Shown: piece after piece, positions 1 through 39,048 of the stretch
Layout of the letters: every line of letters starts with the position of its first letter
Position numbering within the stretch: the stretch's first letter is position 1
NCBI GenBank assembly: GCA_048213135.1
Contig: PS015458.1
Span: forward strand, 1-40,476
Direction: 5' to 3'
Origin: Reclinomonas americana ATCC 50394
Taxonomy: Eukaryota
Length of the DNA stretch: 40,476 bases
Position numbers and translations under genes: made by a program
Notes under the pieces: generated by a model
What the model was told of the DNA's origin: nothing
Seen by the model: the letters and a program-made list of their open reading frames with translations, nothing else
Databases searched by the model: none

Positions 1-1663
1 GTTGGTCTCGCACCACCGTCCACTCCGCCTGGCAACAACAGCGGAAACAACGGTGGGACCGGATCTGGAACGGGATCTGGAACGGGATCTGGTTCGAGTT
101 CTGGCTCGGGAACAACTTCTCCGCCACCGCCGGACTTTTCCAATCCTGGGAGCTGCTCTTCCAACCCGTTCGCGCAGGCTGTCGAACTGCCACTCGGTTC
201 CGCTCTTGCGTCAGTTGAGTGGCGCGAGTGTGCATGAGTATTCTCCCCCTCCATGTGCGCCGCTAACATCTTCTCCTCCTGCGCGTTTGTATCGCATGTC
301 ATCAGCTCACCAGCGCTGTTTGTGGCTCGACTTGGGTTGGCCGGCAGAGTTGCTGCACGAGCGATACCTTCAGCGCCATTGTGACGGTCGTTCAGAAAGC
401 CAACAGGAAGATTGCTGACATGGTAACATGTGCATCCCTCGTCCCACGACTGCCTTCGACAAAGTAACTCAACCGTCGACTGCACCACGCAGATCGATCA
501 AGTGGAGCAGTGGGAGATGTCGGTCCTCACACAACTCATCAACAGTGTGCAGGGTGAGTTCTTGTCGCTGTCGCACATGTGTATTACTGCTGCTCATCGT
601 GTTCGCGCACGCCCTCAAATGCCTCTTTGCAGCTGACGTCACGCAAGTGTTGGAACTCGTGCGTAACGTGTATCAGGTGGACAACTCAGCTGCTGTGCAG
701 AGTGGTGAGTTGCAGCATGCAGTGTCAACGCTCCGCTTGACCTACACGACGAGTCCTCACGATACCGATTGCATTCGCAGCTCTACGGGATGCCTCCACT
801 GCGGCAGACAACTCGCACTTCCACTCGTCGTTCGGCACGGCGTCGCGACAATGCGTAGCTGCCCTGCGGCGGTATGCGGCTGGCATGGCTTGCATGTCGT
901 GTACTTCGGACTGGGGTCAGTATATCACGGCAGACCGTCACATTCGAGTCAGCGCGGCCACGTGCAGCTCCCTCCTCACCGGCTGTCAGCCCATGTTCGA
1001 CGCGACAAACAATGTCTACTCGCTGCTGGTGGCGGTGTATCGAGCCGCCGTGCGCGGAACTGCCTTGCTGTCGACAGTCAGCAGCTTCTCTGCGCCATCA
1101 ATCTGCAATACGAACGACTGTCGTTCGATGGTGTGCACTGGCATGGTGCGAGGTCTCGACTTTGCCGCCGACACACTGCCAGCGGCCGCTCCGCCTCTGA
1201 CTCTCAACCTCGGCCAGCGAATGGCGCTGCGCATGGCAGTCATGGTGAATTCCACCACGCAACAAGCCGACGTCACACGCGCACTGGAAGCAGTGGTTGT
1301 CAAGTTCCGCCGCCACCTCGCCCAGCATTCGCAGCAGCAGCATGTCACCGGAGAGTTGCCCGAGGAGGAGGTCGAGACTGCCACTGGCGATGTCATTATT
1401 GGTTCGCGCACTGGGGCAACGACGTTTGTCAATGAGGTACGACCATTGGCTGTGATTTTGAGTGCACTGTGGGGTGACATTGTTGATGATGTCGCCTTCG
1501 CTTGTAGTATGTCACCAGCGGAGGATTCGCGCCCATGCAAGTGGAGTCGTCGTTGTATGTTGATCCGGGAGCAGGGACAAGCAACAATGCCATCAATGTG
1601 GCCGCCGCTGGCACGATTTGGTGGGCTGTGTGCGTGATCGCCACCATGGTGCTTGCAATGTGA
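1..1663 (+). CDS. Cys-rich cell-surface protein, probably GPI-anchored, with folate-receptor/NPC1-N-like Cys spacing (5' truncated)
   Basis: Hand-spliced across 5 GT-AG introns (donors at 214, ~422, ~554, ~706, ~1437). A G/S/T/P linker (GTGSGTGSGTGSGSSS) precedes VCGSTWVGRQSCCTSD...QCVAALRRYAAGMACMSCTSDW...CSSLLTGC. The C-terminus is small residues plus a hydrophobic tail (SNNAINVAAAGTIWWAVCVIATMVLAM*, TGA 1661-1663). The family call is inferred from Cys spacing only. Confidence 0.6.
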
Positions 1664-1857
1664 CCCAGCGCTGCGATGATGCTCCACGGCCAGTGTCGAT
1701 ATCAGATATATATCAGAGATCACAGACTCGCAGAACGATAAGGCACTGTCGGCAAGGGATTTGTGCGATGTGGTGAATGAAGTGTTTTGTTTTGTAGTGC
1801 ACGTATACGCCCCCGACGATGCATGTGACAACGACAACAACATGCGCAACAACAATT

Positions 1858-4181: not shown

Positions 4182-4720
4182 GCTGCGTGGGATTGCAAAA
4201 CGGATGATTATTGACGCGTAAACGCTCAACGCCACTGCACAAACTTGAAGATACCTTTGCATCTGCGGTGGTCAGCGCTCTCCGGAACAAAGGTGACGAA
4301 TAAACGCGTCCCGTCATGACTTGGCACGACACAATGTCAGTGTCGCGTCGTGAGTCGCAAGATATTCCGATACCAATTGCGCTAAGCAAGCTCTCGTCAA
4401 GAACCCTACGAACTGGTCTCGTTTCTGATAGTGTTTGCTCCACAAGCCTTGTGGGCGTGCGAGGAGGAGAGTCTGTTCGTCACAATCGTCAGACTCTGAG
4501 AATTGCAATTCCGACACGACACTGCACTCACCAGTGGACAGCAAGCGAAAACCCGACATGACACTGGAAACCAGTCAACGAGCAGCGGACACTGCATACA
4601 CCGAACATTCACCAATGTCAGATCTACTAACAAACCAAGCAACTTCATTCACCGCATCAACGGTGAGTAAACTCGGCGCCTTTGGCTTCGCATCGTCTAC
4701 ATTCCCGTTCCATCCAACCC

Positions 4721-6667
4721 CTAGTCAACATTCTCCGGCTTGTTCACCAGGTGCTTGTCCTCGTTCAGATTGTCGATCGCCAACAGCTCCTCCTCCGTCA
4801 GCTGGAAGTCAAACACCTGCAAATTCTCGATGCGGTGCTCCAAGTTCGAGGTGCGCATGATGGTGACTGCAACAGGCCGTCAGCGCCGGACGGGAAAGAA
4901 ATCGCACAAGAGAGATACACGCACTGAATCCGTGCTGCAAGCTCCAGCGCAGCAGCACTTGCGGAATGGTCTTGCCGTAACGCGCCGCCACCGAGTTCAG
5001 CACCCGTTCGTCCGAGTCGACCAGCTGCAAGGCAGGAATTAGCTGTGCACCCACACCAAACACACAAGCTGGCAGCAGTGACGCACATAGCCGTGTCCGA
5101 GGGCCGAGTACGCCGACACAAGAACGCCATTGTCGCGGCAGTACGTCACCAGCGGACTGCACATTTTAATAAAAGGGCGAGAGTTAGATTGCGCACTCCC
5201 CTCTTTCTCTCACACACTCCCTCCCTCTATCCTTCCCTCCTCCCCACACTCACCGCTGCGTCAGCTTCGGGTGAATCTCCACCTGATTGATCGCCGGCGG
5301 AATGGTGCAGTGCGCCATCAGCTCCTCGAGGTGCTTGATGGTGAAGTTGGAGACGCCAATCGAACGCGCACTGCGCCAACGACAAATGAGCGATTACTTG
5401 CCACCTTTCTGTCTCCCGTTCTCCCACGTCTCACTCGCCTCCGGCTCCACTCGCCTCTGTCTCCACCCGCCCCTGTCTCCACCCGCCCCTGTCTCCACCC
5501 ACCCCTGTCTCCACCCGCCCCTGTCTCAGCTCGCCTCCTCACCCGCCTCTGCTTCACCCGCCTCTTTGTCTGTCTTACGTTCTTTCCGTTTCCTCTCCCT
5601 CCCTTATCTCCTCCCACTCCTCTCCTTCTCCTCTCCCTCTCCCCTCCTCTCCCCTCCCCTCCCTCTTTGCGTGTGCGCTTCCTCACCGCCCACTGTTGTA
5701 GATCTCCTCCATGGCGCGCCAGGTGTCGCGGCGAAGCGCAATGTTGTCAGGCGGACTCGTAAACATCTGCACAATCTTCCACCTACAAGAAGTCAATACG
5801 AGACAGACATGCAGGAACGACGCGAAAAGAGCGACGCACTGCGGCTGCGGGCCTGCGGTTCCACGAACATATACAGTTATGTCAATAACTTCTCTTCATC
5901 GTCCCACCCCTCTTCAACCCTCGATCACTCACCGGGGAAGTGCACCAAGAACAAGTCAATGTAGTCGAGCCCGAGGTTGGTGAGCGACTTTTCGAACTCT
6001 TCCAGCGTCTCCTGGTACCTGCACGACACCATAAAGAATGCGTCAACCTCGGGCATTCAAAGCACGGAGAAGAACACCGACTTACCCCATGCGATCACGC
6101 AAGAGCTTGGTGACGATAAAGAGCTCCTCGCGCGGAACACCCGAGTCGCGAATGGCACGGCCGACTGCACACAACCAAAGGTTGAGAGAATCATTCGGTG
6201 CACACGACCGTCGAAACGCACCTTGATCCTCGTTGCCGTAGTACGTGGCCGTCTGTTGAAGCCCGCGTGCGACAGTGAGTCTCACAAGCGGAACTGAGAG
6301 AGAAAATGAAAAAGCAGCCGCAACATCAATGTGTCGGAAGCCGAGACGAATGGCGCTCAACTGCGTAGCGCGCGTCAGCGTCGGTGGAGAAACGTGTCGC
6401 AGAGCCTACTCACCACCGACTCGTAGCACTCGTCGCCCTTGATCTCCCACACTCCGTGCGCAAGAATCGGGATCTTAACCTCCTGTCCATCGACACTCGC
6501 CTGCTTCAATGTCACTGTCGGAATGGGCGACACGAGCACTCCACCCGGCGGCTACACACTGCGTGAGAAACCAACGAGTGGCGGCGAGCAGAAAAGGGCG
6601 CACATCACCAAACCTTGGACGAGCTCACGCCTCCGGCGACTCCCTGCGGTGCGATTCCTGTCGACAT
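4721..6667 (-). CDS. Aldo-keto reductase (AKR1/AKR5-like)
   Basis: Splicing 11 introns yields [81 protein letters not shown] and [14 protein letters not shown]. The catalytic D/Y/K/H tetrad is present. Stop TAG at 4721-4723. Confidence 0.95.
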
Positions 6668-7882: not shown

Positions 7883-8475
7883 CTACATCTGCCGTTGCAC
7901 AAACATGACCATCGAGTCGTTCTCGATGCCCAGCGACCCCAGGTTGGCCGTATCCGGCGCCAATTCGCGTCCTCGGAACACGAAGCGGATGCTACTTGGG
8001 GCGACATTCCCGGTGCGCAGTCGATCCACCGAACGCACAAACACTGTCGTCGCAAGTATGAGTCTCAAGCAACTGCCACGGAGGTGGAAAAAACGAGAAA
8101 CGCAACACGTCTTGAAGTCGAGCAGCGTGGACGACAGTTGCGCAGAGACTGTACACTCGCGCTTGAGATCAACGTCATGGTGAGCGGGGGGAAAGAGTGG
8201 AACCGCCGCACCTGCGTGCACAGTGGCGCCTTCGCGCACTCGCACATTCACAGTGGCGTTACTGGCAGCTGCCGCGGGCGCAGCACTGGCCGCACTGGCC
8301 GACGGCCCGGAACTCGATCGCAGCTGAGCGACCTCTTGCTGCAGTTGGCGCTCCCTGCTCTGACTCTGCTCCAGCTGCTGCTGCAACTCGCGCTCGCGTG
8401 CTCGTCCTTGCTCCACGGCTTGCTCCAAGGCGGTCTGCGCAAAACGCGAAGGGGGTGAGAGATCTGCATCAAATG

Positions 8476-8574
<99 letters not shown>

Positions 8575-10075: not shown

Positions 10076-13000
10076 TTATTTCGCACTCGGCACCAGCAAG
10101 AAGGAGCTGACGTAGCCGATGCCCTTGACTGCGCACAGCCCCCCCCCAAATTCGTGAGCAGACTCCCTCACATTACAGCTCCACCACCGTCTCTCACCTT
10201 CCACAGTCGACGCCTCCACCTCGAACAGTCCGCGGACGTGTCGATTCACCGACTGCACACATGGACGAGTGAGCGGTCACGAAAAGCAGCGAACTCTCCC
10301 CCTCACACCTGTTTCTTATCTCCCCCACTCACCTCGCTGAGTTGTATCCTGTTCATCGGCGCCGAGCTCTCCATGCGCGACGCCATGTTGACCGAGTCTG
10401 TTGCACGGCACCACCAGTAAGACAACAATTCATTCACCAAAAACAAACAACTGCTGACTTGACGACCACGTCCAACCATAGTACATCCTCACAACACCGG
10501 TCTTGTGGGCAGCGGAAGGTTTTCTTGTTCTTCTTGTTCTTGTTCTTGTTCTTCTTGTTCTTGTTCTTTTTCTATTCTTGTTCTTCTCCTCCTCCTCCTC
10601 CTCCTCCTCCTCCTCCTCCTCCTCCTCCCGTCCTCCTCCTCCTCTTCCTTCTCCTCCTTCTCCTTCTTCTTTCTTCCTCCTTCCTCTTCCGCCTCCTCAT
10701 TCTTCTCCTCCTCCTTCTTCTGCCCCCTCTCTCCCCCTCCCCCCTTCCTCTCTTTCTCACGCACCACCATACATGTCAAACGTGCGAATGAGACCCGCCA
10801 CAATGCCCGACGTCACTGGACCAGTGTTCAGACCCATACGGAAGTCAATCTCCAATTGATGCTGTGCGAGGCGACGATTTCAGCAGCTGGGCACACAACG
10901 CATCTGGTGCATCATGCTCACCTCGCGACACAGCTGCAAAATGGCGTGCCTGGCATCCAACGCAAACTCCACCATGGCCGTCGCATGATCATGTCGCGGA
11001 GCGTACATGCCCGAGACAGCAAGGTATGCCGATCCTGTGCGTCGAGTCTCGATTGAGAAGCGCGCGACACAGACCGTTGCGTACAGACAAAGGAGACTCA
11101 CCAATAGTCTTCACTCGCTCCACAAGGTGCTTGCGCACCAGTGCATCAAACGCACTCATCGCGAGGTGCAACACGTCGACTTTCTCACGCAGACTCACCA
11201 CTTCTGCGCTCAGGATAACAGAAAAAGGAGAGATCAGCAATGGCCGACACAAGCGGCAGCGAAAGCAAGACGAACCACGAGTGGAGGCGCGTCGCACAGA
11301 GACCACCTTGATGAACAAACAGGTGACCTCCTTGTGGAAATCACAGAATGTTGTCTGCTCATCGTCCGCTTGCTGTGCACGACGCAAGTGGTGAGTGTCC
11401 AAGGACAGCAATAGCTCAAAGATCATCACCAGGCACTCACCACATCCAGGATATCCCTTGCGGTGCTCATTGATTTCGCTGTCAGCTGCTCTAGTGCCGC
11501 GGCAGGGAACGACAGTCGAAGAAGCTGTGTTGCAAGGCAGATGAGCACGCAGAGCCGATGAACCACTCTCCTTTATCGATTGTCACACCTGCTGCAGTCG
11601 CTCGTTCGCCTCACGCTGCACATTGACACGCTGCGCCAGCAAGTGCAATTCCGAGACACGAACCAGCAGACTTGATTCTCCCTGGTCAGTGACCAGAATA
11701 CCGCGCACGAGCACACGGACGCTGTCCAACCGACCAACACACAGCTGTCAGCACTTTGTGTACATACACTGCAAAGCTACTATTACATGGAGACGCAACA
11801 GGTGACCATCCTTTCGCTGCACCTCGGCCTCCACTGTCGTCTCAGACATCAGCTCCGACCGCGTCATCGGTCGCAACATGTCCTCGACAGTCAATTGTTG
11901 AGAGCCTGCACTCGTGTCAGACAGGCATCTCCACATAATCTCACGCAACCAGCCAACTCACCGACAACCTCTTCGACCGAATACCCCAACACTCGCGTGA
12001 CCGACATGTTGCACCAGCGAATCCTGTCGTGCTCGTCGACCAACAATATCTGTGTGGGTCATAAATTGTGAGTTGTCCGTGCAGCCACACGAGCTCCACC
12101 CCCCCCCCCCCCTACTCTCTCCACGAAACTACATCGCTGCTCGTCGACAGCATGCCATTCATCCGGTCAATCCTCTCTTCGTAGTCGGCGCGCACCTCGG
12201 CCTCGTTCTTGTCGCTGTGCATGACGGCGCACAGGGAGCGTTGACCGCCAACCGTCACATCCGCCACATGGTACGCAATGGGGATCAGCGTGCCGTCCTT
12301 GCGCAGACCCTGGACCGCGCGGGCACTGAACGCACACAAGGATATGCGTCAAAAAGCAAGTTCCAGAATGCGAAGGGATGAGATGTAAAAAGCTGGAAGA
12401 CACCTTTGCAACCCGCTACGCTCATTGCGCGCCAAGTACGCTTCGACGTAGCTGTGTGAGCGTGTGAGAGAGTGAAGTCAATATACAGTCGCAAGATGCC
12501 TGCCATCATTGGCACGCAACGAGTGGTGGCGCTCCGAGTGCGGTGCCGGCATGAGCTGACGCACATTTCGACCGATCAACTCAGCCACGGTGGGATAGCC
12601 AAACAAGTCCAGCATCGCCTTGTTCACTTGCTGAATGGTGCCTGACGTGTCCGTCACAACCACCGCCTCCGGCATACTCGTCACCATCGACAGTGTCTGA
12701 TACATGGCCATGAGCGATCGGCTCTGAGTGGAACCAAAGACTGCGCGCACTCACCGTATCATGCATGCGACGCGCTTCGGCCTCCGCTGCCAGTGCCGCC
12801 CCACAATCTCGTAGCATGGCAGCGAAAAGAAGACGGCCGTCAACATGAATTTCCATCACAATCAGTCGAATGGGCACATCGTGACCCTGACGATGCTTCG
12901 CCTGTGGCGCGTATGCGGTGAGATACCATGAAAAAGAGAACTTTTCTGACACATCATTGCTTACCACAGTGGTACGCTCCAAGCGGAAAGACGAGCGTGT

Positions 13001-16000
13001 CGTCGAAGTGTTGACCTGCTGCAGCAATCGGCTCATGTAAACGTCGTGCGCAGCGTGAATGTGTGGCGGAATGATGGTCTGCGATTCGTGTCACGGAGAG
13101 TGAGAATTGATGGCATCACCACCAATGAGCCGTTGTGTGCAGTACCTTGACACTTGAGCCGACGATTTCGTCGGACGTGTAACCAAGCATGCGGGTAAAT
13201 GTCTTGTTCACAGACTCAACTGTGAGATCCTCCGTGGCGATAACCATTCCGAAACCTATCGCAGATGTCAGAAACAAAACTGGAGAGAGCACAAAGCGAG
13301 AATGATCAAAAAAACGCAACTTTGTGTCAATTCTTTCAACATGTGCTCGCTCTCGTTCAGCTTCTGATTCAGCGTAATCGACACCAGCAGCGACTCTGAC
13401 GAAGGTGCGCACGTCAGTGATGTGCGCATAAAAAAACAGGAAGTGGTGGTCACTTGGAGCGCAACGAGGAAGCAGTGACTGCTGCAATTCGGGAACCAAG
13501 CTGATGACATCCACAGACAGTCCTGCAATGACTCCACGGAGGAAGCGCAGCTCCAGATCACAAGTGCGAAGCAGTGGTGCAATCAACAGCCAGGATCCGA
13601 GAGCGGCCACCACGAGACCGAGTCCCAGCAGAATCTGACCGCCGACGACGAGTTTTGTCATGTAGTCTTCGTAGGTGCCACTGTATAGCTGCATGTAGCG
13701 AGTCAGAATGTATGGCACTAGATATCGACAAGATAATAACTCACTTCCGCTGACTCATCAAAGAGAGCATGCACAACTGGCTGAGCGGCCAACAGGAACT
13801 CCATTGAATCCATTTCCGCACTCGTCACGGGAGGCCCGCGCTCAGCCACAGCGAGACCGGTGGCAATCATTTTCTCAACCTGTTCACATGCACGATGCGT
13901 GAGATGGTGACAGTGACGGAGTAAAGCACACAGGCGACAAACTTACCAACGACTCAATCGGCGCGCAATCCACATCGACCCGCCACACTGGAGTCACATT
14001 GCCGCCGCGCTCATCAACCCGGCAGCGCGCACCATACAACATCGAGTGCTGCAAGGCATCATCTGTCGACGAGAAGCCGCTGCTGTCGATCACTCCAAGA
14101 ACGGCCCTTGCATCGTTACTTGCCTGATGCGCGGGTGTCAAAACGATGAACGACGATGCNNNNNNNNNNNNNNNNNNNNNNNNNNNNNNNNNNNNNNNNN
14201 NNNNNNNNNNNNNNNNNNNNNNNNNNNNNNNNNNNNNNNNNNNNNNNNNNNNNNNNNNNNNNNNNNNNNNNNNNNNNNNNNNNNNNNNNNNNNNNNNNNN
14301 NNNNNNNNNNNNNNNNNNNNNNNNNNNNNNNNNNNNNNNNNNNNNNNNNNNNNNNNNNNNNNNNNNNNNNNNNNNNNNNNNNNNNNNNNNNNNNNNNNNN
14401 NNNNNNNNNNNNNNNNNNNNNNNNNNNNNNNNNNNNNNNNNNNNNNNNNNNNNNNNNNNNNNCGCGTGCCTCGGTGTTCAAATACATCCAGAACAGAGTG
14501 CGCAACATTTCGGTCACTCTCCGACATGTCGAGATATGTGAGGTACTGCTGCTGCAGCTTGAGACGCATGGCGGCAGCTTCCTTCTTTGGCACAAGCCGA
14601 CACGTCACCAGTCCGTCGCGCAGTCTGCGGCGCACCATGAACAGCGCCGGCACGAAGAGGCAGACGAGGAAACCAACGGCGAAACTGCATGGTAGAAGTC
14701 AAATAGTTAGCAACGTTGCTGAACAGTCGCAACATGCGGAGTAGCAAGCAGAAACGCACCCAGCAGCCACGCCCACATACACCCACAGCAGAGAACTCGC
14801 GTTCGCCGCTTCCTCGATTGTTTGGTCAATCATGTCGTTGCACACTTCCAGCCATGCGCTCCGTGCTCGCAGGCTGTTGCGTCCGGCACTCTCGATGAAT
14901 GCCGGCTGCCGCAAAGCAGGGGTACCCGCTTGCGCAAGAGAACGTGAGGCATACAGCTGCATCGAGAGCCGTATCAGTGTTTGCACAGCGAAGGTGCACT
15001 CATGAAGCAGCAGCGGGTACCGACCGTCAGAGAATCACTGTGATTCACAATCACATCCAGGCTGTGCTTCGGTCGCACCACCATGTTGACCTTGGGCACC
15101 TCGAACTGCGCCTCGAAGACATTCTGCATGGCGGCCTCGCTGTCCAACCAGCTCCAGTCGGAGTGCAGGACTGCAAGGGCATGGTGCGACGTGGTAATGT
15201 TGGTGAGGATGCGATCTCGAAAGACATCGACTCGCGCGCCGAACGAGGACGGCGAGTCCTGCTTGGCGTACTCGTGCATCTGCAGCGCCGAGAGGCTGGC
15301 CAATGTCGCATCGATGCTACACACCGAGAACACAAACGCGGTCAGATAATGCCATATACAGCACATGAGCGCCGACCGTCCACACCTGGCATCGACAACA
15401 ATCTCGAAAATTGTGCGCCTGCCGAGCGTATCTTGCACAGTGGTGATTGTCAGGACGCCGACAAAGATGAGCACAACACAGAGAGCACCAGCGGTAAGCA
15501 GCAGGGCCCAGTTGGCTCGAGTCACTGCCACAATCTGTGAATGGGGGAAAGGGGGAGAAAAAACTGTTGGTCACCAACGAACAATCGCACACACAGTACA
15601 ATGAGTGTGACTGAAACCTTTTCGGCGGCAATGATGCGCCTGACAGTGCTCGAGTTGGAGTATTCACTGGCGGCAAAAGACTTGGAGTGACACGAGGCAC
15701 TGCAACGAACGGTCAGTATAGATTGCATCATGAGAGGCATTCTTTTGACTCACCTGTCTCCGTTGGACGACGCACAGCGACTGCCCGAATCGCTTCCACG
15801 GCCTCGAGCGTCTCGATTGGGAACTATCTCGCAAAGTGCAAATGTTAGCGAGCGCCACACTAATTGGATGTAGATAGACGCAACTCTGAGGGACGATGCG
15901 AACACTCGACTTCATGTTTGCGTGCTGCGCAACGAGAGCGAGTGAGCGACACATCAGCACCAAGTTATAACCCAGGTGACCGACCTTGGAAGCCGTACGC

Positions 16001-19382: not shown

Positions 19383-19386
19383 AAAC

Positions 19387-23739: not shown

Positions 23740-24412
23740 ATGGAAGTTGGGCGCGGACTGTGTGCCGCCCTCGCCTTGTGCGACATCAACCTGTGCGTGC
23801 TCGCCGAGCAGCGCGCCAAAGTCGAGGCCGCAATGATGAGCAACCGAGCGTCCAAGGTGAGTGAGACACACGCGACGTTCTCTTTCTCAATGTGTCTCAC
23901 CTCTCTGCACAGAGGGCGGTTGACTCGTTCATTGCTGAGAGCTCTGCGATGCTGAGTGAGCTCAACTTGCCTGGAGTCGGCTTGTCGTACTTTATCGATG
24001 TCAGAGGCGAGGTGAAGAAGAGAGAGAGATAGAGAGACTCAGAGAGAGAGAGAGAGAGAGACTCAGAGAAGAGAAGAGAGAGAGAGTGACTCAGTGAGTG
24101 ATCATCATCTTCTTCTCCTCTTATGTTGTTTTGTTGTTGTTCTCAGAGACCACCGGCGACTGCGGAGGCACAGCGCACTGCTGTGATTCGTGAGAGTATG
24201 CCATTGGAGTACTCGACTCGAAAGTGTTGCGTCTTCTCTCACTCTCTTGCCTTCTCTCACACTCTCTTGCCTTCTCTCCTTCAGTCTCGACCTGCCTCCC
24301 TCACCCATTCAGTCCTTCTCCTTCCCTGTCTTTCTCCCCTTGGTTGCCTGTCTCCCTGTCGCACTCACTCTCAGACTGCATGCTTGCCTTCCAGTCTGTC
24401 TGTCTTCTGTCG

Positions 24413-24454
<42 letters not shown>

Positions 24455-27400
24455 GCCCTGTTCGTGCCCTTCCTCCCTCTCACTCTGTCTCCTTCATCGA
24501 TCGATACCTCTCCTTCCTCCCTTCCCTCCTTGTCTCCCCTCTCCCCCTGTCAATCAGTCTGCATGCTGCCCTGCCAGTCTATATGTTGTCTCCTTCCTCT
24601 CTTCTCTCCTTGTCTCCCTCTCCCTCTCCCTCTCTTCATTCCTCCCTCGCCCTCCCTCTCTTCATTCTTCCCTTGCCCTCCCTCCTCCCTCACCCTCCTC
24701 CCTCACCCTCCTCCCTCACCCCCCTGCCTCACCCCCCTCCCTTCCCCTTCTCCCTTTTTGCAGGGTCTTCCGAGGACGACGCACTGCTGACCTACACAGT
24801 GCGAAATCTCATCCTGGAGGACCTCACCGCGCATCTCATGGAACAGTTGTGTAATAATAGTGGTAGAAGGTGTGGGGCGAGCTTCTCACTGTGAGAGCGC
24901 AGGTACAGCAACATGTCTGGCGGCGACATTGCGGAGCTAAATGACAAGCTGCAGGCGCTGTCGGAGGAGTCGCTGGAGGAGCTAGAGAAGAAGGCGCTAA
25001 AGCCGATTGACTGGAAGGCGGTGGCGGCGTCCAGTGTTGCGTTTAATCTTCCCTCGTTGTCTATATGGTGGATGCTGATGGTGTATGTCGTGCCGTAGTT
25101 TGCGTCGCGTGAGCCGCGTGAATTGCAGTGGCACTGGTACCACCATCTGAGTGCGCTGGTCAATCGCGGCTCGTGGACCAAGGAGGAGGAGAAGGAGCTG
25201 CGCCGGCTGGCCGCCGTGCACGGTGGACATCAGTGGGATCTCGTCAGCAGCGAGCTGGGAGTTTCGTGTGCACATTGTGTGTGTGTGGCGGGGATAAGAG
25301 TAGTTAACTCTGTGTTTGTGTTGGCCGAGCAGACGAATCGCACCCCTTTTCAGTGCCTGGTGCGGTATCAGCGGTCGCTGAACAAGACATTAACCAAACG
25401 GTCTGGTTGCCGTGAGTGTTGCGCCTGCGCGCGTGTAATGGAGTTGAGTGCTGACCCGCGGTGAGCAGTGCCTGGAGTTCCGAGGACGACGAGAAGCTGC
25501 GCGAGGGTGTGCGCATGTATGGCGAGGGGAACTGGCAGCAGAGTTTCGTGGGTCGCAGTGGAAAGAGCCCCGCTTCGCGTATTTACTATAGGTGTGTGCG
25601 ATGCAGTTGCCAGCATTGTGCAGGGTCGCACCGGTCAGCAATGTCTCCATCGGTGGCACAAGACGCTGCGGCCGAGCATTTGTCGCGCACCGTGGATGCC
25701 CGACGACGACCGAGTTGCGTGCTCTCGACTTGTTTGTGGATCACTTTTCTCTGAGTCTCACCCACCGCCGTGCACAGCGTCTCTTGCTGGCTGTGCAGGC
25801 GTATGGGAAGGGCCAGTGGACGCATGTCGCTCGCCACGTTCCCAGTACGTGCACACCAAGTACACGGCAACACATCAACAGACACAGCACAGTAGATTGC
25901 ACACGCATTCTCTCTCTCTCACTCTCACATTGTTTCGGTGTGCCCTTTTTTACACTTGCTGACACGATCTCGGGATTGGCAGATCGCACCGATGTGCAGT
26001 GCCGCGAGCGATGGGAAAACATTCTCAACCCGTCGGTGGCCATGCACGAGTGGACCGAGGACGAGGACAAACTGCTGCTGGAGGTGGTGGAGAAGTATGG
26101 GGCCGGCAAGTGGAGCTTGATTTGTCGCGAGATCCCCAATCGCACCGACAATCAGTGTTGGAGAAGGTGCGTTTGTTTGAAGCGCATGAATAATAAGGAG
26201 CCGGAAATTGACACATTCAACGATGTGCAGATGGAGGGCGCTCACTGAACGTGAAGATGTAATTGAGCATCGCCGCAAGGCACGCAAGATGAAAACCGCG
26301 CTGCCTGTGGGCAGCAGTCGACCGTCGGACAAGCCTGCGCTGTCGGTGGAGGAGCTCGTCGATCTGGAGGAAGAGGAGGAAGAAGAGGATGAGAATGAGG
26401 GCGAGAAGACTGCGACACCGGTGGGGCGCGACTGTGTTGTTGAGCTGTGCACCCTTCCCGTTCACTGACTCCACCCCCCTCGACGACAGGGAAGTGCGCG
26501 TGGCTCCAAGGGCCGCAAGCGTGCCGCCGACGGTGAAGGCGACTCGGCGGAACAGTCGGTCAGGAAACGGGCGCGCACGAAAAAGGCGAGCAAGGAGACG
26601 GGCTCGGCAGCTGCGGCCGCTGCGGCGCTTCTCGGATCGCCCTTGTCGTCGTCGGAGGCGACGGGCGAGGTAGTGCCCAAGCGGCGCGGTCCAGGCAGGC
26701 CACGCAAGGACAGGAGTATCGGCGGTAAGTTTGCCTCAATATGGTTGCAGTGATGTATTGGTGACTCAATCTTCTCGTGTTCGCAGACGCGGCGAATGTG
26801 CCTGCGCCGATGAGGTGTGCTTTTTTCGTGCAAGTGTGTGCCTTGCTTTATATTTCTTCTCACTCTCTCCGCCGCACACAGTGCTGAAGAACGGCTGTTT
26901 GTGGCCATCGAGTCGCGGATATACGACGAGACCGGACAACTCGTGCAAGTGGTGCCCGCCGCACCGCTGCCAGAGGGAGATGGCGGTGCTGCGGGTGCCG
27001 TGGCGGCTGGCTCCGCAGCGGCGCCGATTGTGGTGGAGGAGCACGACGTGGAGATGCAGGAAGAAGACGATGACGATGCGGACAGTGATGAGGGTGCGGA
27101 AATGGAGGAGGTGGAAGAGGAAGGTGAGTGGGGGGAGGGAAGGGGAAGGAATAGGAAGGGCAAGGGATTGGTGATAAGAGAGAGGGGGGAGAAAAGGAAA
27201 ATATGTGCGCGGTGGCACAAAGAAGGGCAAGGTGTGTCTGAGAGACGGAGATGGGCAGGAGGACAAGAAAGGGAGAGAGATAGTGGAATGCAAAAGGAGA
27301 ACATTTGCTTAACATGGGGAGTGGACAGAGGAGGGGAAGAACTTCTGGGGAGTGTCAGCGACAAATACATGGGTGATGTGGACACGGGAAGTATGTTTGA

Positions 27401-28190: not shown

Positions 28191-29375
28191 TCACGCCTCG
28201 CCGTCGCCAATCTCAATGTCCACCACCACTGGCCGGTTGGTGAGAACGCGCGAGTCCATGCCACCGCCGACGTTGGCGGCGTTGACGAACAGGGTGTTGT
28301 CGTGCACCGCAACCCCGTAACCGGCATGAATGTGACCGAATACGTGAAGCAGCGGCTGCAGGTGCTTCACTGTCTGTGTGTGTGGAGAGTTAAGCGTTGA
28401 GTGAAAGGGAAGAGAGCATGCAGTGTGCCAACCTGGAGAACTCTGCATGTGATGTGGTCAGTCACTCGATCAACGACGACGAGGCTGGCGCAGAGGTACA
28501 ACGCAACTCTGGGCACCCGCCTGCTCGCCCACCGTCGCAAATGCCCTGCGGTGGTGGGTGCGTGATGAGGATCTGTGCGGAAATGGCCTGGGTGAGGAAC
28601 AGTGCCGGGGAGTTGCAGCTGAGAGGGATGAGAACACACATCGACACTGCCGGGCGCCGCTCCTCGTGGCAGCTGGTAAGGGGTGCCCTCTGTGGCGCGT
28701 CGTTGTGAGCAGTGGCACAATGGCATGCAAGCACAACGTCTCCATACCTGGTTGAAACGGCAAGCCAATGATCCGCACACCGTCGCACTCGACCGCCTCG
28801 TGATCCGTGTGCAACACGGCGGTGGCATTCGACAGCACCTCCCTCAAGCCCTCATACCCGCCCAGATCGAGATCCACATAATTCCGCTCGTGATTCCCGC
28901 AGATCACCACCTTGTGCTGGTGTGGCAACGTGCCCAGCCACTCGTTGAAGGCCACAAAGTGCGCCTGGCGTGACATGAGCGTGAAATCGCCTGCATGAAC
29001 GATCGATCGGTTTTCGGAACAGCGATCGATCGCAAACGAGCGAGACAACTGACCGGCGTGAACGAGGATATCGCCAGTCGGCACAGCGGCACCCAGCACC
29101 GACTCGAACTTGCCTTGCTGCGCGTGCGTGTCTGCACAGTTGTCTTTTGTGCAAAAATAGCATCGATCGCAAAAAAAGATCGCGATCAATCGATCGCAGC
29201 CCTCACCTGACACGCACACCACACGATGCCGACGTCGACGGTGATCGTGATCACCAGCATCATCCACCAGCGCGACACTGGCCTCTGCATTCACAGCGCA
29301 CGCATTGACAGTGCGCTGTCCGTAATCCGTAACTCGTGCGACGGATCCACGTTGCGCCACTTGAAGTGGTGGCAT
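28191..29375 (-). CDS. Calcineurin-like metallophosphoesterase (MPPED1/2, 239FB-like)
   Basis: Six introns. Motifs VVCVSDTH, DILVHAGDFT, FNEWLGTLPHQHKVVICGNHE, VDILITHPPP, GCPEVLQTV, LHVFGHIHAGYG and TLFVNAA. Stop TGA at 28191. Start could extend into the adjacent gap. Confidence 0.93.
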
Positions 29376-30107: not shown

Positions 30108-33065
30108 CCTTTGACGCCCGCGCCAATCGCATCGTGGTGGCCTTCAAGGGCACCGACGGCATTCCCGACTACATTGCCGACATTGATGTGCTGAAGACGC
30201 AGCTGTGGGACACGGGTGCGTGGATGGAGGCTGGGATTTTGAGGCGTGGGAAGTGTGTGTTTATCTGATGCGCTGTGTATTGTAGGCGTCAAGGTGCACG
30301 AGGGCTTCCTGCGCTCGTATGAGGTGTGTGAGAGGGAGGGAGGGAACGAGGGAAAGGGAGAAGGGGGAGAGAGAGAGGAGGGAGGGAAGGAGGGAAAGGG
30401 AGGAAGGGGGGAAGGGACAGAGAGAGAGAGAGAGATAAGTACAATCTATTTGCGAGAGAGAATGTGTCGTGTATGCGTGCGACTTTATTTTGTGCAACGT
30501 GAGTGAAAGAAGGAAGGGAAGGAGTGAGGGAACAAGAGAGAAGAACAATCAGTTTGCGAGAGAGAATGTGTCGTGTATGCGTGCGACTTTATTGTGTGCA
30601 ACGTGAGTGCCTGTGTGACAGGGATGGAGAATTCTCTGACTGCTGTGCAGCGTTCACGCGCGCACATGCACGCTCTTCTACACTGTGTCTTATGCGCTGC
30701 ATTTCTCTTTATCGCACGAATCACTATTGTGTTCCGTTTGTGCGAAGAGTGTGTTGCAGCAGGAGGGAGGGAGGGAGATCACTTGTGTGTGCCATGAACA
30801 GTGTTATGTAGGAAGGGCGGAAGAGACTAATGTGTTTCCTGTCTTGCACTTGTGTATGTCACAGAAACTGTGTCATGATGTCTTCTTCCTGTGTGTCCTG
30901 AATAGGGCTTTATTTTCAACATCGATAGCACACTTTTAAACAGTATTAGTTGTAGAAGGGAAGCACACGAGACTTGTTGGCGATCACTGGTAGATGCTCA
31001 TTGTTGTGTGTGGATTAGTGAAGTTTCTATTTTTTGTAAAGCGAAGGGAGATTCACTTGTGTGACGACAGTGTTTTTTTGTGATTGCCATTTCTTACATG
31101 TGCGTTCCCCATTCTACAGGCCTGCAAGGACCAGTGGTACGCCGATTTCGACCGCCACAACCAGAACCACCCGAACGCACAGATTGTCGTCCTCGGGTTG
31201 GTGGACCGCTGGAGTTGCTCTCCACTTCTCTCGACACTCACAACATGCTTTTCTCCACGGCAGACACTCGCTGGGCGGCGCACAGGCGACGCTGGCCGCT
31301 GTGGATCTGACCTACCACCACCAGATTGATGTTGCGTTTCATACGAGTGTGTTTGTGTGCTGCTACTGCTGTTGCCGACATCTCCGTGTGTGCAGCCGAG
31401 CCGCATGATGGTGTTCACCTTTGGCAGCCCGCGTGTTGGCGCCGACAACTCGTTCTACCCGTTCTACATCAGCGAGATCCCGCTCGGACGCTCGTGGCGC
31501 ATTGTGCAGTTGCGTTTTCCGTGAATATTTTTGTTGCTTCTGCATTGTTGCTCACATTCCCGTCTCCACTTTGCAGCAACCACGACATTGTGCCTGGTGA
31601 GTGTGTGGGAGTGGAGGGAGAGGGAGAGAATGTGTTTAGTGCACACTGATCAGTGTGAAAGTGACGTTGGGAGTGAGTCAGTTGTTGTCGGGAGTATGTA
31701 AGTGAGTTCTTGCACGTGTATCAGTGAATGTGAGTGAGGCAGTGTGTGTCGGCGAGTATGCAAGTGAGGAGTGCAGTGCGATTCAGTGAGTGTGCAAGTG
31801 TGGGGTGAGTCAAATTGTGCGAATCGTCAAGTGAGCGTGCACGTGAGGAAGTGCGTGTTAGTGAAATGTAGGAAGTGCGTGTTGGAGGTGCAGAATGCGC
31901 GCCTGCCTGCGTGTCCGAATGCTCTCTCTCTCTCTCTGCACCAGTGTGTGCGCGTGGAAGGGTGAGAGTGTCCAACTGAGTGCTTGCACGTGTGTCAGTG
32001 AGTGTGGGAATGTGTGTTGGCAAGTATGCAAGTGAGGGAGTGCAGTACGATTATGTGAATGACCAAGTGAGAGAGCGCACGCGTATCAGTGCGAAATGCG
32101 CGCCTGCCTGCGTGGCTGTAATCTCTCTCTCTTGAAAAATGAGAGTCTCCGAATGAGTGCTTGCACGTGTGTCTGTGAGTGGGAGTGAGTATGTGTGTGT
32201 GAAAAGTATTACGGGAATGAGGAGGCGCACAATGTTCGCTTGTCAGCGTGTCTGTTTGTTGCTCGCTGCACGACTGTGTACGCGTGGAAGCGTGAGAGAG
32301 TGCCAGAGAGTGTCAGCGAGTGAGAGAGAGAGAGATTGACTGCACCCTGCATTGGGAAAATGTGACTGAGTGCTTGTTATTGTGCCCGATGATGCTGGTG
32401 CGCGTGCTGACTGTTTTCATTCCACTTCTCCCCCTCGCAGATGTGAGTTGGTCGCTGACAATACCGAGCAAAATAATTGTTCTTTCATACTAACAATTGC
32501 CATTGCAGCTGCCACCGAGCTACTTTAGCTTCGAGCACGTGCCGATCGAGGTGTGGTACAACGAGGTGAGTGGCATACATCAGTGCGGGCACAGGAAGCT
32601 CGCTCGTCGCTCATTTGCATTCTCAGGACAACACCGAGTACAAGGTGTGCGAGCCGACCAAGGACTGCGGACCTCGTTGCGTCTTATTCCCCCACGCACT
32701 TGCACTCTTGACACACTTGCTGACATTGCATGTGCAGAGATCAACTTGTCGTCGGCCGGTACGCTCGCCTCACTTGTTCTTTTCGTCTGCTCACTCTCAC
32801 TCTACGCTTGTATCTTGTCTGTGCAAAAAATATTACCCAACAGACCACCACTTCTACGTTGCGCACACGCCTCTCCTCACCGTTCGTGAAACACACACAC
32901 ACACACACGGCTCCCTCACTTCTTGTGTGCATTTGTTGATGCGTGCAGGTCGGTGTGCCGCTCGACTGTGGCCTCAAGCGCGTGCAGATCGACGACGGTG
33001 CCTACGTGCGCGCTCTGTCGCGCAACAAGTGGCGGTACAACTTGGCCGCCAACGCCGAGGAGTAG
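30108..33065 (+). CDS. Class 3 lipase (Lipase_3); 5' exon(s) missing, probably in gap 29406-29519
   Basis: Spliced motifs IVVAFKGT, VKVHEGFLRSY, VLGHSLGGAQATLAA, FTFGSPRVG, WRIVHNHDIVPDLPP, FEHVPIEVWY and ADHHFYVG give a complete Ser-Asp-His triad. Stop TAG at 33063-33065. Confidence 0.94.
30448..30609. repeat. Intronic ~57-bp direct duplication
   Basis: TTTGCGAGAGAGAATGTGTCGTGTATGCGTGCGACTTTATT(T/G)TGTGCAACGTGAGTG at ~30448 and ~30553. Confidence 0.9.
30898..31005 (+). repeat. Dispersed ~100-bp repeat, copy 1 (lipase intron)
   Basis: Aligns to 36516-36618; shared core GTTGTAGAAGG(G/A)AAGCACACGAGACTTGTTGGCGATCACT..AGATGCTCATTGTT. Confidence 0.9.
31700..32190. repeat. Degenerate tandem duplications in a long lipase intron
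   Basis: GAGT(G/T)CTTGCACGTGT recurs at ~31704, ~31978 and ~32155. AGTATGCAAGTGAGG and AATGCGCGCCTGCCTGCGTG each occur twice. Confidence 0.75.
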
Positions 33066-34269: not shown

Positions 34270-34281
34270 TGGTGCTGTTGC

Positions 34282-34319
<38 letters not shown>

Positions 34320-34536
34320 TCTCTCTCGCGACTCTCTCGCGCATATCCCTCGTCCTTCCGTCGTACGTACGTACGTAACGTAAAGTAAGTAGTACGTACG
34401 TACGTTCCGTCCGTCCGTCNNNNNNNNNNNNNNNNNNNNCGGTACGTTCCTACTTAGTCGTCGGTCGGCGAACTACTCGTCGCCGCCCGCCGGACGTAGT
34501 TGTCGTCGTTCGTAACGTAGTAGTGTGTCGTCGTTG

Positions 34537-34577
<41 letters not shown>

Positions 34578-35212
34578 TCTCATCCGCGAACTCCTCTGCG
34601 CATATGCATGCGCTTGCCTTCCTGACGATCGTGAAAAATGTATGACCACGTTTGCCCGCTGCGTACCACTGTGCACACACGATCAATCGTATCTCAGCAA
34701 GTTCGACGCATGCGTCTTGCGAGAGAGCTGTGCGCAGAGAGTCACTATGGACTGGCTGCTTATCGAAAATAGGCGTGCACGAGTGTACACTTTGCCGCGA
34801 CACTGCATGCGCACGCGCAGTTATTATGACGCCGACGGAACATCCTCACACAACGCACACTTGCAGTCGAAGAGAAACACTACATGACTGTGTGCATCCA
34901 GTGGCGTAGCAGGCAAGTGAATACAGGCAGACCTTGGTGACAGCTAGATCTCAATTCTGTATTGTCCGCGGCTCTGCTTTCTGCAAATCACGTTGACACA
35001 AGGAACCCTCGCTTGTCACGACACTGCGGCTGTAATTGCCGCACATCTGTACCAGCAAGGCTCGCCAGACTGGCTCTGTGAACATCAAACATGCCTAGGC
35101 CTGGATTATTTTTCCACGCTCTTCTTCTTTTCATTGTTGTCGGACAAAGAGAGTGGTAGAGCAGACAAGCAGAGTGAGCAGAGGAAGAAAGACTCGCTAC
35201 TGTCACACCGCC

Positions 35213-38200
35213 ATGTCCACGCACGGATCACCATCACGTGAGTCGCGTGATGACACAGGAGGTGCGTCGCATTGCTTCTTCAGTGTTTGTTTTTCAGTGA
35301 TTTCTGATCTGCGTTGCGTGTGCGATCACAGCAAGCGCAGCAGCTCTCTCCTCACCGGGCGGCAGCCAGCCGCGCAGTACCAACACTGACGAGTTCACTG
35401 GTGTCTCTCCGCACTGGCGTGCGCCCCCCATTGGTGAGCTCGAGCGTGATCCCAACGCCGCCAAACCACTGTCACCACCGCAGCGAGTTCTTCGATATCT
35501 CTCACACTGCGCTGCGTGTGACACGTTGCAGCTCCACCGAGTCCATCGAGCCCCCATCACCAGCCACAATCGCCCACCGTTCGCCGATACATGGTGCGAC
35601 GCTCGTATCGTTCTTCTTGCTGCTTGCATGCATACTTGTGTGTTCTCACTCTCGCTCATGACACTTGTAGGAGGCCAGTTACGACGACGACGACGACACC
35701 AGTACCATCCCCGAGGGATACCGATCACCGAAGATCGTGCCGAAAGATGCTCCCAACAGCAGCTTCATCACTGCCGAAGGCGGACTGTCGCCCACGCGCA
35801 TCGCATTCATGCATATGGAGCACCAGCAATACTCCGATGTCCACACTGCGGTGCGTACGACTCCCCCTCTTTCACAGGTGCACGATCGCTGATGTGAGAG
35901 CGCAGTTGTTGGACGCTGCGTCAGTCAAGTCGCAGATGAAGGGCTGCTGTACGAGAGAGGTTCTCTGTCCGCTTCCCTGTTTGTGCTGCAACTGCCGTTG
36001 CTGCACGAGCCCTTCAGCGGAGGAGGAGCAACAACAAGTTCCTACAGCGTATGAAGTGTTTACACTGCTCCTCCGCATTCTGCGCTTCTTCAAACCGGAG
36101 GGATGGCTCATCATCATCGCCATCATGGTCAGCTGCACCACAGTGGCGCTCTCACAAGTCGAAATCAAGCTCCTCGGCAATATCGTGACATCGGTGCAAG
36201 TATTGCTGCAGACCGTAGATGATCCAGGGTATGGCACTTATTACCCCCTCTTGCAATACATGCATTTGTTCAAAAATCTTATTTCTCGCTTTCGGCGCAG
36301 TCATCGAGAGGATGTCGACTGGTACCCCATCCGATACGACCTCTTCATGTGGGTGATTGTCATGTCACTGAACCAGATCCTCACGCAAGTCGGCGTCTTG
36401 CTCTTCCGCAGTACGCACAACAAGGTGAGGGAGCAGGAAACAAGTGCAGCGAACACGGGATTGACAAGGAAGCTTTCCTTCTCTGTTCTCCGCTCTTCTA
36501 CATCTAGATCTCGTACTGAATGCCTTATTCTCAACATCGATAATGCACTGTAAAGAGCACTGTTGTAGAAGGAAAGCACACGAGACTTGTTGGCGATCAC
36601 TAGCAGATGCTCATTGTTNNNNNNNNNNNNNNNNNNNNATTTCCTTCATTATTGCCATGTGCTTCCACTGCTCAAGACTCCTCAATCGGTATTTGTGTGT
36701 TCTCCTGGCCCATCCACACCGCTTGTTGGTGTTGTTGGTCCGTCTCCTCGTGTTCTCTTCCTGCCACTTTCTCGTTTTGTGTCCATCTCCGTCTTCGCTT
36801 TCACTCCCCCATCGTTGAATCCTTCTCCCTCACTAACTCTCTCTCTCTCCTCAGATTATTCTTCGTGCACGCTGCCGTTTGATGGACGTGCTGTTGTGCC
36901 AACCAATGTCGTTCTTCCAGACGGCACAACAGGGAGACTTGCTGTCACGACTGTTGCGTGGACGTAATTGTAATCTGCTGCTCTTCGTGATGACACCGAC
37001 GACACTGTTGATAATTTGCGCACACAGCATCACCAACATGGAGCAGCTGTGTGGCATTCCGAGCGCCCTGTTCTCATTCCTGCAGCCGATCTTCCTCTTC
37101 ATCACCAGCAGCATCCTCATGTTTAATCTTTACCCGGCGCTGACACTGGTGCGCAGCCGCATCACACATGCACTCTTCGCATCATCCACACACTCACCAT
37201 GCAGCACAGGGCTACTACGGCGTCTTCATCGTTCAGGTAGTGACCTCGGTGTACGAAGGCCGGTTGCTTGGCACTCGCAGCAAGGTCTGTGGCGCACAGT
37301 GTTGTCTCGCGAGCGCGAGTGACTGCATTAATTATCAACTTACTCACGCTCTCTCTCTGTCTCTCATGCTGCGCAGTTGTACTATGATGTTCTGTTACCC
37401 ACGCTTGCCATCGCACGCACATACTCCCATTCGTCGATGCTGACGGTGTGATTCCATGTGCAGACACAAGGTTCCATGACGAATGTGGCCGACGACATCT
37501 TGCGTCGCATTCGTGGCATTCGCAGTTGCGGGCGACAGCAGACCGAGTCGAATCGGTACTACGGCAGCTGCCGCGAGCACTACTACGTGGAGACGAGCAT
37601 GCTCAACGTCTCCATGGTCTGCTGACAGTAATGGCTTGCTCTCTGTTGCAGCTGTCGCAACTCATGCTGTGCTGAACAGTCATTCAATGTGGTCACCATG
37701 GTGGTTACCGGATTCATTGGGGCGTTCAGTCAGTTTGTGCTCACTTGGTCCGTGCTGCGTGCGGCAATCACCCTGGGCGATCAGACAGCCTACGGAGGTG
37801 AGTCTTGCCGCATTTCATGTGGTGCAAACTGCCTCCTCACTGTGATATTCAGCAATCTCGACGTCTGCATTGCACGCGGTGCAAACCTCCAGCGATTCAT
37901 ACTCGTCACTCATGCAGCAGCTCGGTGGTGTGGAGGACATCTTCAACCTGATGATGACAGCTCCAGGCGATGGAGTGAGTGAATTATTCAGTGGTAACTA
38001 GAGATAGATGACTGTTTCGTATATTGTTGGTGTGCCAAGGTCATTGTCGGCAAGATCTAGAGATTTGTGGCATTGTGTATTGTTGTGGTCTCTGACTTGT
38101 GTTTGCTGTTTGTGCGCACAGGAGGGCATTCCGGGAGTGACAAACATGGAGGCCACTGCACCGATTCCGCGCTCAGCCACTGGCCGTGTGAACAAGCCGA

Positions 38201-39048
38201 AGAGTCCCAAGGCAGCCATTCCACAGGCCGGAGAGCCGATCATTGTGATGCGCGATGTTTCGTACTCGTACGTCGTCCACAACAATGGCGCTTTCGGCTA
38301 CGGCGATTATGACGACGACGATGACGATGAAGAAGAAGAAGAAGCAGATGCCGGAACACGCCAGCAATTCCAGGTACGTAGCAGCAGCGTGCAACCGGCA
38401 AGCACGAGCACTTGTACAAATTCGCGCTTGTGCCAGATTTTGAATCGAGTGTCGCTCACGATCCGTGCCGGTGATCGAGTGGTGATAAGTGGCCCGAGCG
38501 GCGGCGGCAAGTCCACACTCGTCTGCCTCTTCATGCGGTACTACCTCGTATCCAGCGGCTTCCTGAGTCTCGCCGGGCACACGCTGTCGTCAACAGTTGC
38601 GTCAAACACAACAACAGTGTCAGCAGCAGCTCACCACTGCCCCTCTTGACCTCACGAACGCAGATGAGTGGCTCGGAGGTCCGACAGCTGCGCCGGCGTA
38701 TCTCATTCGTGCAACAAATGTCGGCGGAGCCATTCCTCCTCAGGGCCACCATTCGCGACAATATCGTGTACGGCACTCCTCCCGAGGACCGAGTGCCGAC
38801 ACTCGCCGCCGTTCGTCGTGCAGCGCAACTGGCCTCCATCGACCAGGACATTATGCAGATGAGTGACGGGTACAACACTCTGCTGGACGTCTCCGTGGCC
38901 AGCCAGGGTGGCAGCTTGAGTCCCGGGCAGCAGCAGCGGTGAGTGTGTGTGAGGGGTGGGAGAGAGAAGAGAGGGAAGAGTTGGATGGAGGGAGAGATGG
39001 GAGTGCAAACCAAGTGCCTTCAACAACAACAACAACAACAACAACAAC

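Follow-up and report, generated by a model that had tools for sequence, protein, structure and literature searches.

Introns beginning GTTGCGT in a Reclinomonas americana contig: a candidate second donor class read one base out of register

In a stretch of 40,476 bases from Reclinomonas americana ATCC 50394 (contig PS015458.1 of assembly GCA_048213135.1; the whole stretch is hereafter the window), an earlier note had listed 26 introns whose 5' splice sites begin with GTT and carry G at intron position +6 in place of +5. This observation holds and proved sharper than first described, since a shift of the exon-side signal and a near-obligatory C at +5 can be added to it. With about even confidence, we interpret these GTT introns as U2-type GT-AG introns that form a second, separate donor class, (G/C)A|GUUGCGU (the bar marks the cut), which would be read one base out of register. 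The window has a GC content of 53% and eight N gaps; exons are short throughout, and introns are mostly about 55–95 nucleotides (nt) long with CAG acceptors.

GTT was present at all 26 listed coordinates on the strand given for each, and the displacement of G+5/T+6 to G+6/T+7 was confirmed, with G at +6 in 26 of 26 sites and T at +7 in 22 of 26. The heptamers of the listed sites comprised 17 GTTGCGT, four GTTTCGT, three GTTGCG[G/C] and one each of GTTGAGT, GTTGTGT and GTTCTGT. GTTKCGT matched 32 times on the two strands of the window, whereas 100 dinucleotide-preserving shuffles averaged 12.2 ± 3.6 and never reached 32. For GTTGCGT itself the count was 23 and the mean of 200 dinucleotide shuffles 7.9 ± 2.7, a threefold excess comparable to that of the ordinary donor heptamers GTGCGTG (33 vs 13.0) and GTGAGTG (29 vs 12.9). 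Neighbours of the motif were not enriched in 200 shuffles (GTTGAGT 9 vs 7.9, GTAGCGT 0 vs 2.5, GTCGCGT 6 vs 8.5, GTTACGT 2 vs 1.7). The matches to GTTKCGT included 21 of the listed donors, the remaining 11 being close to the chance expectation; two or three of the unlisted matches, at 11949 (-), 22014 (+) and 1263 (-), may also be donors. When a gene finder was allowed any GT as donor, GTTGCGT was the most frequent heptamer at all four penalties used (9/276, 8/161, 7/121 and 5/84 predictions, which were noisy).

The exon side of the cut distinguished the two sets of donors. The last exon base (-1) was never G at the 26 GTT-class sites but was G at 20 of the 39 ordinary ones (p = 3.5e-6); A stood there at 13 GTT-class and 7 ordinary sites (p = 0.012). 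Ordinary exons end in GAG|GT (G 14, A 13 and G 20 of 38–39 at -3, -2 and -1), and those of the GTT class in GA|G (G 10 and A 13 of 26 at -2 and -1). Scored under the ordinary profile, exon bases -3 to -1 of the GTT class gave a log-likelihood of -122.6 in place, -104.6 when the profile was slid by one base and -109.3 for the background, the slid profile thus beating the unshifted one by 18 log units. At least one mis-call is contained in the ordinary set, at 25277 inside the intron starting at 25261; it was removed for the exon-profile likelihood comparison only.

On the intron side, C was found at +5 in 24 of 26 GTT-class sites, whereas the counterpart position +4 of the 39 ordinary donors had C in 12 and A in 17 (p = 6e-7 for C), and A at +5 occurred once in 26 (p = 5e-4 against A at ordinary +4). 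As C at +5 is near-obligatory and A there is rare, the class is not 'any ordinary donor plus a T'. The earlier note had described it as the same motif with one inserted T; two findings speak against so simple a description, namely that GTTGAGT is not enriched though GTGAGT is the commonest ordinary donor, and that the standard U1 end pairs with the class no better than with random GTT sites (below). From +8 on, the bases mirror those of ordinary donors from +7 on (G > T > C > A). The 3' ends of the two kinds of intron were alike: C preceded the AG (acceptor position -3) in 20 of 22 GTT introns and 35 of 39 ordinary ones, a YAG acceptor was present in 21 of 22 assigned GTT introns, and a branch-like CT[ACG]A[CT] lay in the last 45 nt of 13 of 22 GTT and 16 of 39 ordinary introns, against 0.19 of random 40-mers. 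GTT introns were also similar in length to ordinary ones, many of them 57–93 nt.

Placement of the cut was examined by protein homology. For the poly(A) polymerase (PAP) gene a profile was built from 19 of 24 fetched poly(A) polymerases, namely those of 540–720 residues, and for the ABC transporter gene from 70 of 107 half-transporter segments extracted from 150 fetched hits. All pairs of cut points within ±15 nt that kept the frame and created no stop were scored, regardless of dinucleotides; in addition, Pfam profile coordinates of separate exons were checked for continuity over the junction. The earlier note had held that conserved residues fix cleavage at the GT. This was borne out at 9 of 26 sites, where homology supported a cut before the G of GTT (19575, 19789, 20411, 25261, 25543, 25714, 31331, 36953 and 6324), and disfavoured at 38596; at 37389 the score was too low to judge, and for the other 15 sites the evidence consists of open reading frames together with YAG acceptors and branch-like motifs.

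The strongest cases lie in the PAP gene (19.4–22 kb, +, recognised by exon-level Pfam matches), whose best protein match for one exon is 59% identical. The phase 2 intron 19789..19866 (+; GTTGCGT..CAG) ranked first of 321 cut-point pairs against the PAP profile, and Pfam PAP_NTPase ran on without a break at positions 95|96|97; the phase 1 intron 20411..20473 (+; GTTGCGG..CAG) ranked first of 319, with PAP_central continuous at 14|15|16 and an in-frame GTGCGA 9 nt downstream scoring 8.2 bits lower. In each of these two the top-ranked GT..AG pair tied only with its +1/+1 slide, which yields an identical protein. For 19575..19639 (+; GTTTCGT) both GT-AG candidates use the GTT donor, the acceptors, 12 nt apart, being 19639 (39.2 bits) and 19627 (32.1 bits). 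Two places were observed where an ordinary-looking and a GTT-class donor stand in the same frame, GTTGCGG and GTGCGAT 9 nt apart at 20411–20420 (+) and GTGAGTT and GTTGCGT 12 nt apart at 11949–11961 (-); as alternative 5' splice sites, these pairs might lengthen or shorten the product by 3–4 residues.

In the multi-repeat Myb protein gene (24.2–26.5 kb, +, exon-level Pfam matches) the intron 25543..25606 (GTTTCGT) joins QQ-I(a|tt)-A with both PF00249 (25|26|27) and PF13921 (22|23|24) continuous, and 25261..25332 (GTTTCGT) joins LG|TNRT with the Pfam Myb profiles continuous within 2 positions. At 25714..25777 (GTTGCGT; WMPDDDR|RLL) the second downstream residue falls on PF00249 position 12, the junction thus lying at 10|11. 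The remaining GTT introns of this gene are read from the sequence or from open frames: 24226..24763 (GTTGCGT; K-W(t|gg)-SSEDD), which is 538 nt long, CT-rich and ends in a TTGCAG acceptor, was traced by direct reading; 24846..24902 (GTTGTGT) has open frames and a CAG acceptor; and 25036..25128 (GTTGCGT) has open frames and an acceptor at either 25098 or 25128. All lie on the + strand.

On the opposite strand, in an aldo-keto reductase gene (4.7–6.7 kb, -, exon-level Pfam matches), the HID|TA junction of the intron at 6253..6324 (GTTGCGG) agreed with residue spacing in PDB 1vbj. The protein was aligned to that structure after reading through two in-frame introns. The exon between this intron and the next is 31 nt long and so holds 10 full codons and the first base of a codon completed in the following exon, and in the restored protein 10 residues lead from the conserved Asp (52) to the VGRAI block (63), matching residues 52–63 of 1vbj. 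In the class-3 lipase gene (30–33 kb, +, exon-level Pfam matches), Pfam Lipase_3 was continuous at 91|92 over 31331..31395 (GTTGCGT). The downstream exon of 31509..31576 (GTTGCGT; V-H(ca|c)-NHD) is too short for Pfam, and this intron is read from open frames, a CAG acceptor and a CTCAC branch-like motif. Two putative donors follow it, GTTGCGT of a likely 62-nt intron in the 3' part of the gene (32676..32737), with CTGAC..CAG downstream, and GTTGCGC of a likely 91-nt intron (32858..32948), with an acceptor signal.

The ABC transporter gene (35.6–39.7 kb, +, exon-level Pfam matches) contains three of the listed sites. In its membrane domain 36953..37027 (GTTGCGT) was the better of two GT-AG pairs (27.6 vs 15.0 bits) and ranked fourth of 318 overall. 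The GTT-type intron 37389..37463 (GTTCTGT) is the sole GT-AG pair in range, at a profile score of only 6.7 bits, which is too low to judge. For the putative intron 38596..38663 (GTTGCGT) in the ATPase domain the splice signals are good and favour the listed site; the ABC profile favours a product four residues shorter and, among GT-AG pairs, prefers by 6.9 bits GTCAACA 7 nt upstream with a GAG acceptor. Long introns are present as well, one of about 363 nt with a GTGAGT donor (38939–39302, +) being implied by the contiguous ABC profile at 649|650.

The other minus-strand sites are supported by frames and signals. In the PAS-domain gene (10–14 kb, -, exon-level Pfam matches and a weak cyclase match) these are 11722..11799 (GTTGCGT; open frames, CTGAC..CAG), 12050..12129 (GTTTCGT), whose junction lies outside the domain and whose downstream exon starts at PAS profile position 14, 12452..12520 (GTTGCGT; RHH-S(tc|c)-YV), where the upstream exon ends at PAS_9 position 46 and the downstream exon has no match, 13256..13320 (GTTGCGT), with open frames and a downstream exon matching PAS_9 from position 3, and 13396..13465 (GTTGCGC; open frames, CTGAC..CAG). 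The intron 8044..8106 (-; GTTGCGT) precedes the domain of a ubiquitin-like gene (7.9–8.4 kb, -, exon-level Pfam matches); its frames are open, and the downstream exon matches Pfam ubiquitin 33–70. Three putative donors are known by the motif and by signals downstream: GTTGCGT of a likely 61-nt intron in a membrane-protein gene (15824..15884, -; CTAAC..TAG), GTTGCGT at 28443..28507 (-) in a putative metallophosphoesterase gene (28.2–29.3 kb, -, weak Pfam support), with CTGAC..CAG at 65 nt and a provisional acceptor and frame, and GTTGAGT at 214..305 (+; CTAAC..CAG) in a gene of no assigned family.

The share of the class was estimated with a gene finder trained with donors limited to GT[AG]NGT, GTTNNGT or GTTGCG, self-training on free or ordinary-only donors having collapsed. 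In eight homology-supported genes these pattern-restricted models contained 21 GTT-class introns among 60, against 39 ordinary ones. The resulting 35% is an upper-side estimate, as it comes from pattern-restricted models, and the share of roughly a quarter given in the earlier note is a reasonable, if rough, figure. The two classes do not cover every donor: the third PAP intron (19961–20151, +) starts G|GTTTGCC, a donor with T at +3 and +4, G at +5 and G at -1 that belongs to the best GT-AG pair by 15 bits. By its sequence, this intron shows what would be a third, normal-register way to tolerate T at +3. All of the first four introns of the PAP gene carry T at +3.

Pairing with U1 was computed as duplex energies of naked RNA, without pseudouridine or small nuclear ribonucleoprotein (snRNP) proteins. 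The standard U1 5' end paired with the 26 sites at a mean of -1.6 kcal/mol, stable in neither the shifted nor the normal register, compared with -1.7 for 945 other GTT sites (p = 0.57), and with the ordinary set at -6.95 kcal/mol, compared with -2.75 for random GT sites. It separated the GTT class from random GT sites with an area under the curve (AUC) of 0.31, and it ranked 210 for serving both classes among the 1024 variants formed by all combinations at U1 positions 3–7. A hypothetical core of ACGCA ranked second of 1024 by summed score, with AUCs of 0.78 and 0.64 for the two classes against random GT sites. With this guide 17 of 26 sites paired in the shifted register (U1 position 4 with +6 and 7 with +3), 12 of them also pairing U1 position 9 with +1, and a bulge-like fold with position 8 on +1 was obtained in 5 of 26. 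The top discriminators of the class contained GCAAC (AUC 0.81). The ACGCA prediction is not independent evidence because the best guide approximates the complement of the consensus. The near-obligatory C at +5 and the poor fit of the standard end suggest a changed U1, or a second U1, with G opposite that C (core ACGCA); given such a U1, C at +5 would be needed because a site already carrying the U+2 mismatch could not afford a second one.

In the reading we favour, the ordinary signal GAG|GUGCGU would be slid one base downstream of the cut. The usual last exon G would become the first intron base, and the UGCGU core would lie at +3 to +7 instead of +2 to +6; (G/C)A|GUUGCGU would thus be the ordinary GAG|GUGCGU in which U takes the place of the 'normal' +1 G and the cut is made at the GU one base upstream. 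U1, the first recogniser of the donor, would pair one base out of register, after which U5, U6 and Prp8 would set the cut at the only available GU, one base upstream of the U1 register, and U6 would either pair with G+6/U+7 in place of G+5/U+6 or do without. Recognition of this kind probably needs a non-standard or second U1 as well as a slipped U6 contact. The motif, its excess, the cut at nine sites, the slid exon signature and the common 3' signals are seen in the sequence, whereas the pairing partners are inferred. Since the standard U1 end fits poorly and GTTGAGT is not enriched, it is reasonable to suppose that small nuclear RNAs (snRNAs) or splicing factors have been altered. More tentatively, and with distinctly less confidence than we place in the class itself, the window may reflect two donor grammars passing through one major spliceosome, with a third of the introns out of register, a U1 of ACGCA core or a second U1, and a routine U6 slip to G+6/U+7.

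Several points weigh against reading the class as one out of register. Every junction rests on protein homology or open frames and none on RNA, 17 of 26 are without positive residue-level support, and at 38596 homology prefers another donor. The standard U1 pairs with the class no better than with other GTT sites, and therefore the register cannot be argued from the known U1; A at +5, which could pair with that U1, occurs in just one site. The ordinary set was taken from our own gene models, with errors such as 25277, and as its donors were forced to GT[AG]NGT, this choice accounts in part for its G+5/T+6 signal and for how well it pairs with U1. The ACGCA core is only second among the variants and a modest discriminator, and all of the evidence comes from 26 sites in about ten genes of a single 40-kb window.

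A bulged register was the other half of what the earlier note had proposed, namely a shifted or bulged U1. U1 would sit on G+1/U+2 as usual, the extra U at +3 (or +2) would bulge, and pairing would resume over +4 to +7. Such a register is proven for a few human sites (PMC4856993), and it would fit both G+6/T+7 in place of G+5/T+6 and the G at +4, which resembles ordinary +3. A bulge would leave the exon signal in place, and the observed signal has moved: -1 G should be as frequent as in ordinary donors and is absent from all 26 sites, and the unshifted exon profile is the worse by 18 log units. The sequence evidence therefore favours the shifted half of that proposal over the bulged one, which we consider improbable, also in view of the unenriched GTTGAGT and of the few sites (5 of 26) that place U1 position 8 on +1 with the ACGCA guide. 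Somewhat more weight, though still well short of likely, is given to a dedicated second U1-like snRNA, fully complementary to GUUGCGU (…CGCAAC…) and working in its own normal register, so that two U1 species would serve two donor classes. The class is sharply defined, with C+5 in 24 of 26 and T+3 in all, the standard U1 end cannot explain it, the best of the 1024 variants contain GCAAC, and variant U1 genes exist in humans. However, no snRNA gene was found in the window at either Rfam threshold, the best guide is the consensus complement by construction and hence not independent, and an unrelated guide does not predict the shifted exon signature, in which GA|G resembles GAG|.

It is very unlikely that there is no class at all and that loose donors plus base composition, or mis-traced junctions with true donors elsewhere, account for the pattern. 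Donors in the window are indeed varied (G|GTTTGCC in the PAP gene, GTGAGAG), homology at 38596 prefers another GT, and 11 of the 32 GTTKCGT matches are not donors; against this stand a threefold heptamer excess as strong as that of ordinary donor heptamers, nine junctions fixed by homology, the lack of enrichment of single-base neighbours and a significant skew at exon position -1. That the GTT introns are copies of a mobile element (introners) whose end reads GTTGCGT hardly deserves credence. Many introns do share a length of 57–93 nt and a common 7-nt start, but one member of the class is 538 nt long, and all-against-all BLAST of 61 intron interiors (22 GTT, 39 ordinary) gave only low-complexity matches of 9–19 nt, the one long match being a single intron called twice. 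U12-type signals were sought and not found, a RTATCC start in 0 of 26 and CCTTRAY within 150 nt in 0 of 26. The GTT introns are thus most likely U2-type GT-AG introns, judged by their sequence, and neither U12-type introns nor introner copies.

Further features of the window concern its genes and repeats. The PAS gene (10076–14093, -) encodes several PAS domains followed by an exon weakly matching a class III adenylate/guanylate cyclase domain (E = 0.0046, below the Pfam cut-off), and it is possibly a PAS-cyclase sensor with five GTT-class introns. No Pfam domain was found in the long open frames of the window. Two genes with long exons, one at 2979–4181 (-; 288 residues), whose exon had no relative among 5.8 billion proteins either, and one at 517–1940 (+; 242 residues), also have no Pfam domain; these two genes look like ones encoding lineage-specific proteins of a poorly sampled eukaryote. 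No relative was found for the C-terminal exon of the aldo-keto reductase. An Rfam search of the window returned no family at gathering scores and no snRNA at gathering scores or at E ≤ 1. Some 40 matches below threshold (both strands, E ≤ 1) at ~18250–18540, to families of microRNA and snoRNA, were rejected as low-complexity artefacts; at this position a (GA)n tract followed by a (CT)n tract forms a long imperfect hairpin (mirror repeat). A metagenome scan with the polymerase exon gave 32 loci of 36–59% identity and 26–73% GC, among which there was no close relative and none rich in GTTKCGT.

How the cut is placed when U1 pairing and the GU disagree has so far been studied on few human sites and artificial constructs. 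A large share of offset introns would provide a natural system for asking which part of the machinery decides where the cut falls, how tolerant U6 and the catalytic core are of a changed distance between the GU and the ACAGAGA helix, and whether snRNA variants co-evolve with donor classes. If true, it would mean that U1 and U6 both accept more than one register naturally and throughout a genome, which has so far been shown for isolated human sites only, and in such a genome gene prediction trained on G at +5 would get at least a quarter of introns wrong. In the literature searched no lineage was reported to have such a donor class, which is not proof of absence, and a motif search gave primers only; as far as we have found, a GTT class of this frequency has not been described before.

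The closest parallels are human. In the shifted register of Roca and Krainer (2009), as conveyed by citing texts, all base pairs move by one (PMC4856993, PMC11162779), and the oligonucleotide used to test it, ACA/GUCAAGUAUA, has A at -1 and G+6/U+7 (PMC4856993). These sites resemble the GTT class in U1 pairing one base downstream of the cut, in G+6, U+7 and A at -1, and in a cut still made at the GU; they differ in being rare, all validated non-canonical U1 registers together amounting to ~1.5% of 201,541 human sites (PMC4856993, PMC11162779) against ~25–35% of the introns in the window, and the C at +5 of the GTT class is a mismatch to the standard U1. Human sites of the bulge +2/+3 register (Roca et al. 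2012; Tan et al. 2016, PMC4856993), of which 68 were predicted and 54 curated among 201,541, likewise have an extra U after the GU and G/U at +6/+7, but a bulge keeps the exon signal in place and the GTT class does not. At human sites U1 marks the donor roughly and U5, U6 and Prp8 fix the cut (PMC11162779), and by analogy we infer that this division of labour may apply to the GTT class. The usual partner of U6 is G+5/U+6; for the tandem donor of STAT3, pairing of U6 C42/A41 with a GU displaced by one base has been shown (PMC11162779), which is a likeness to the slip supposed here, although STAT3 concerns one human exon and an upstream shift (+4/+5), whereas the GTT class would call for a routine shift in the downstream direction (+6/+7).

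U12-type introns show that one genome can hold two donor classes, but GTT-class introns carry neither of the U12-type signals and have the 3' signals of ordinary introns. Ostreococcus lucimarinus has strict GTGCGTG donors and an ACTGAC branch (Irimia and Roy 2008, PMC2483917). Its genome is intron-poor outside chromosome 2, whereas the window is intron-dense and encodes proteins with no near match in the protein collections searched, and no GTT class is described, 'GTT' occurring 0 times in the text (PMC2483917). The ordinary donors of the window resemble it in including GTGCGT, and branch-like CTGAC is frequent; changes in snRNAs matching an unusual donor, of the kind suggested here for U1, are raised in the same paper (PMC2483917).

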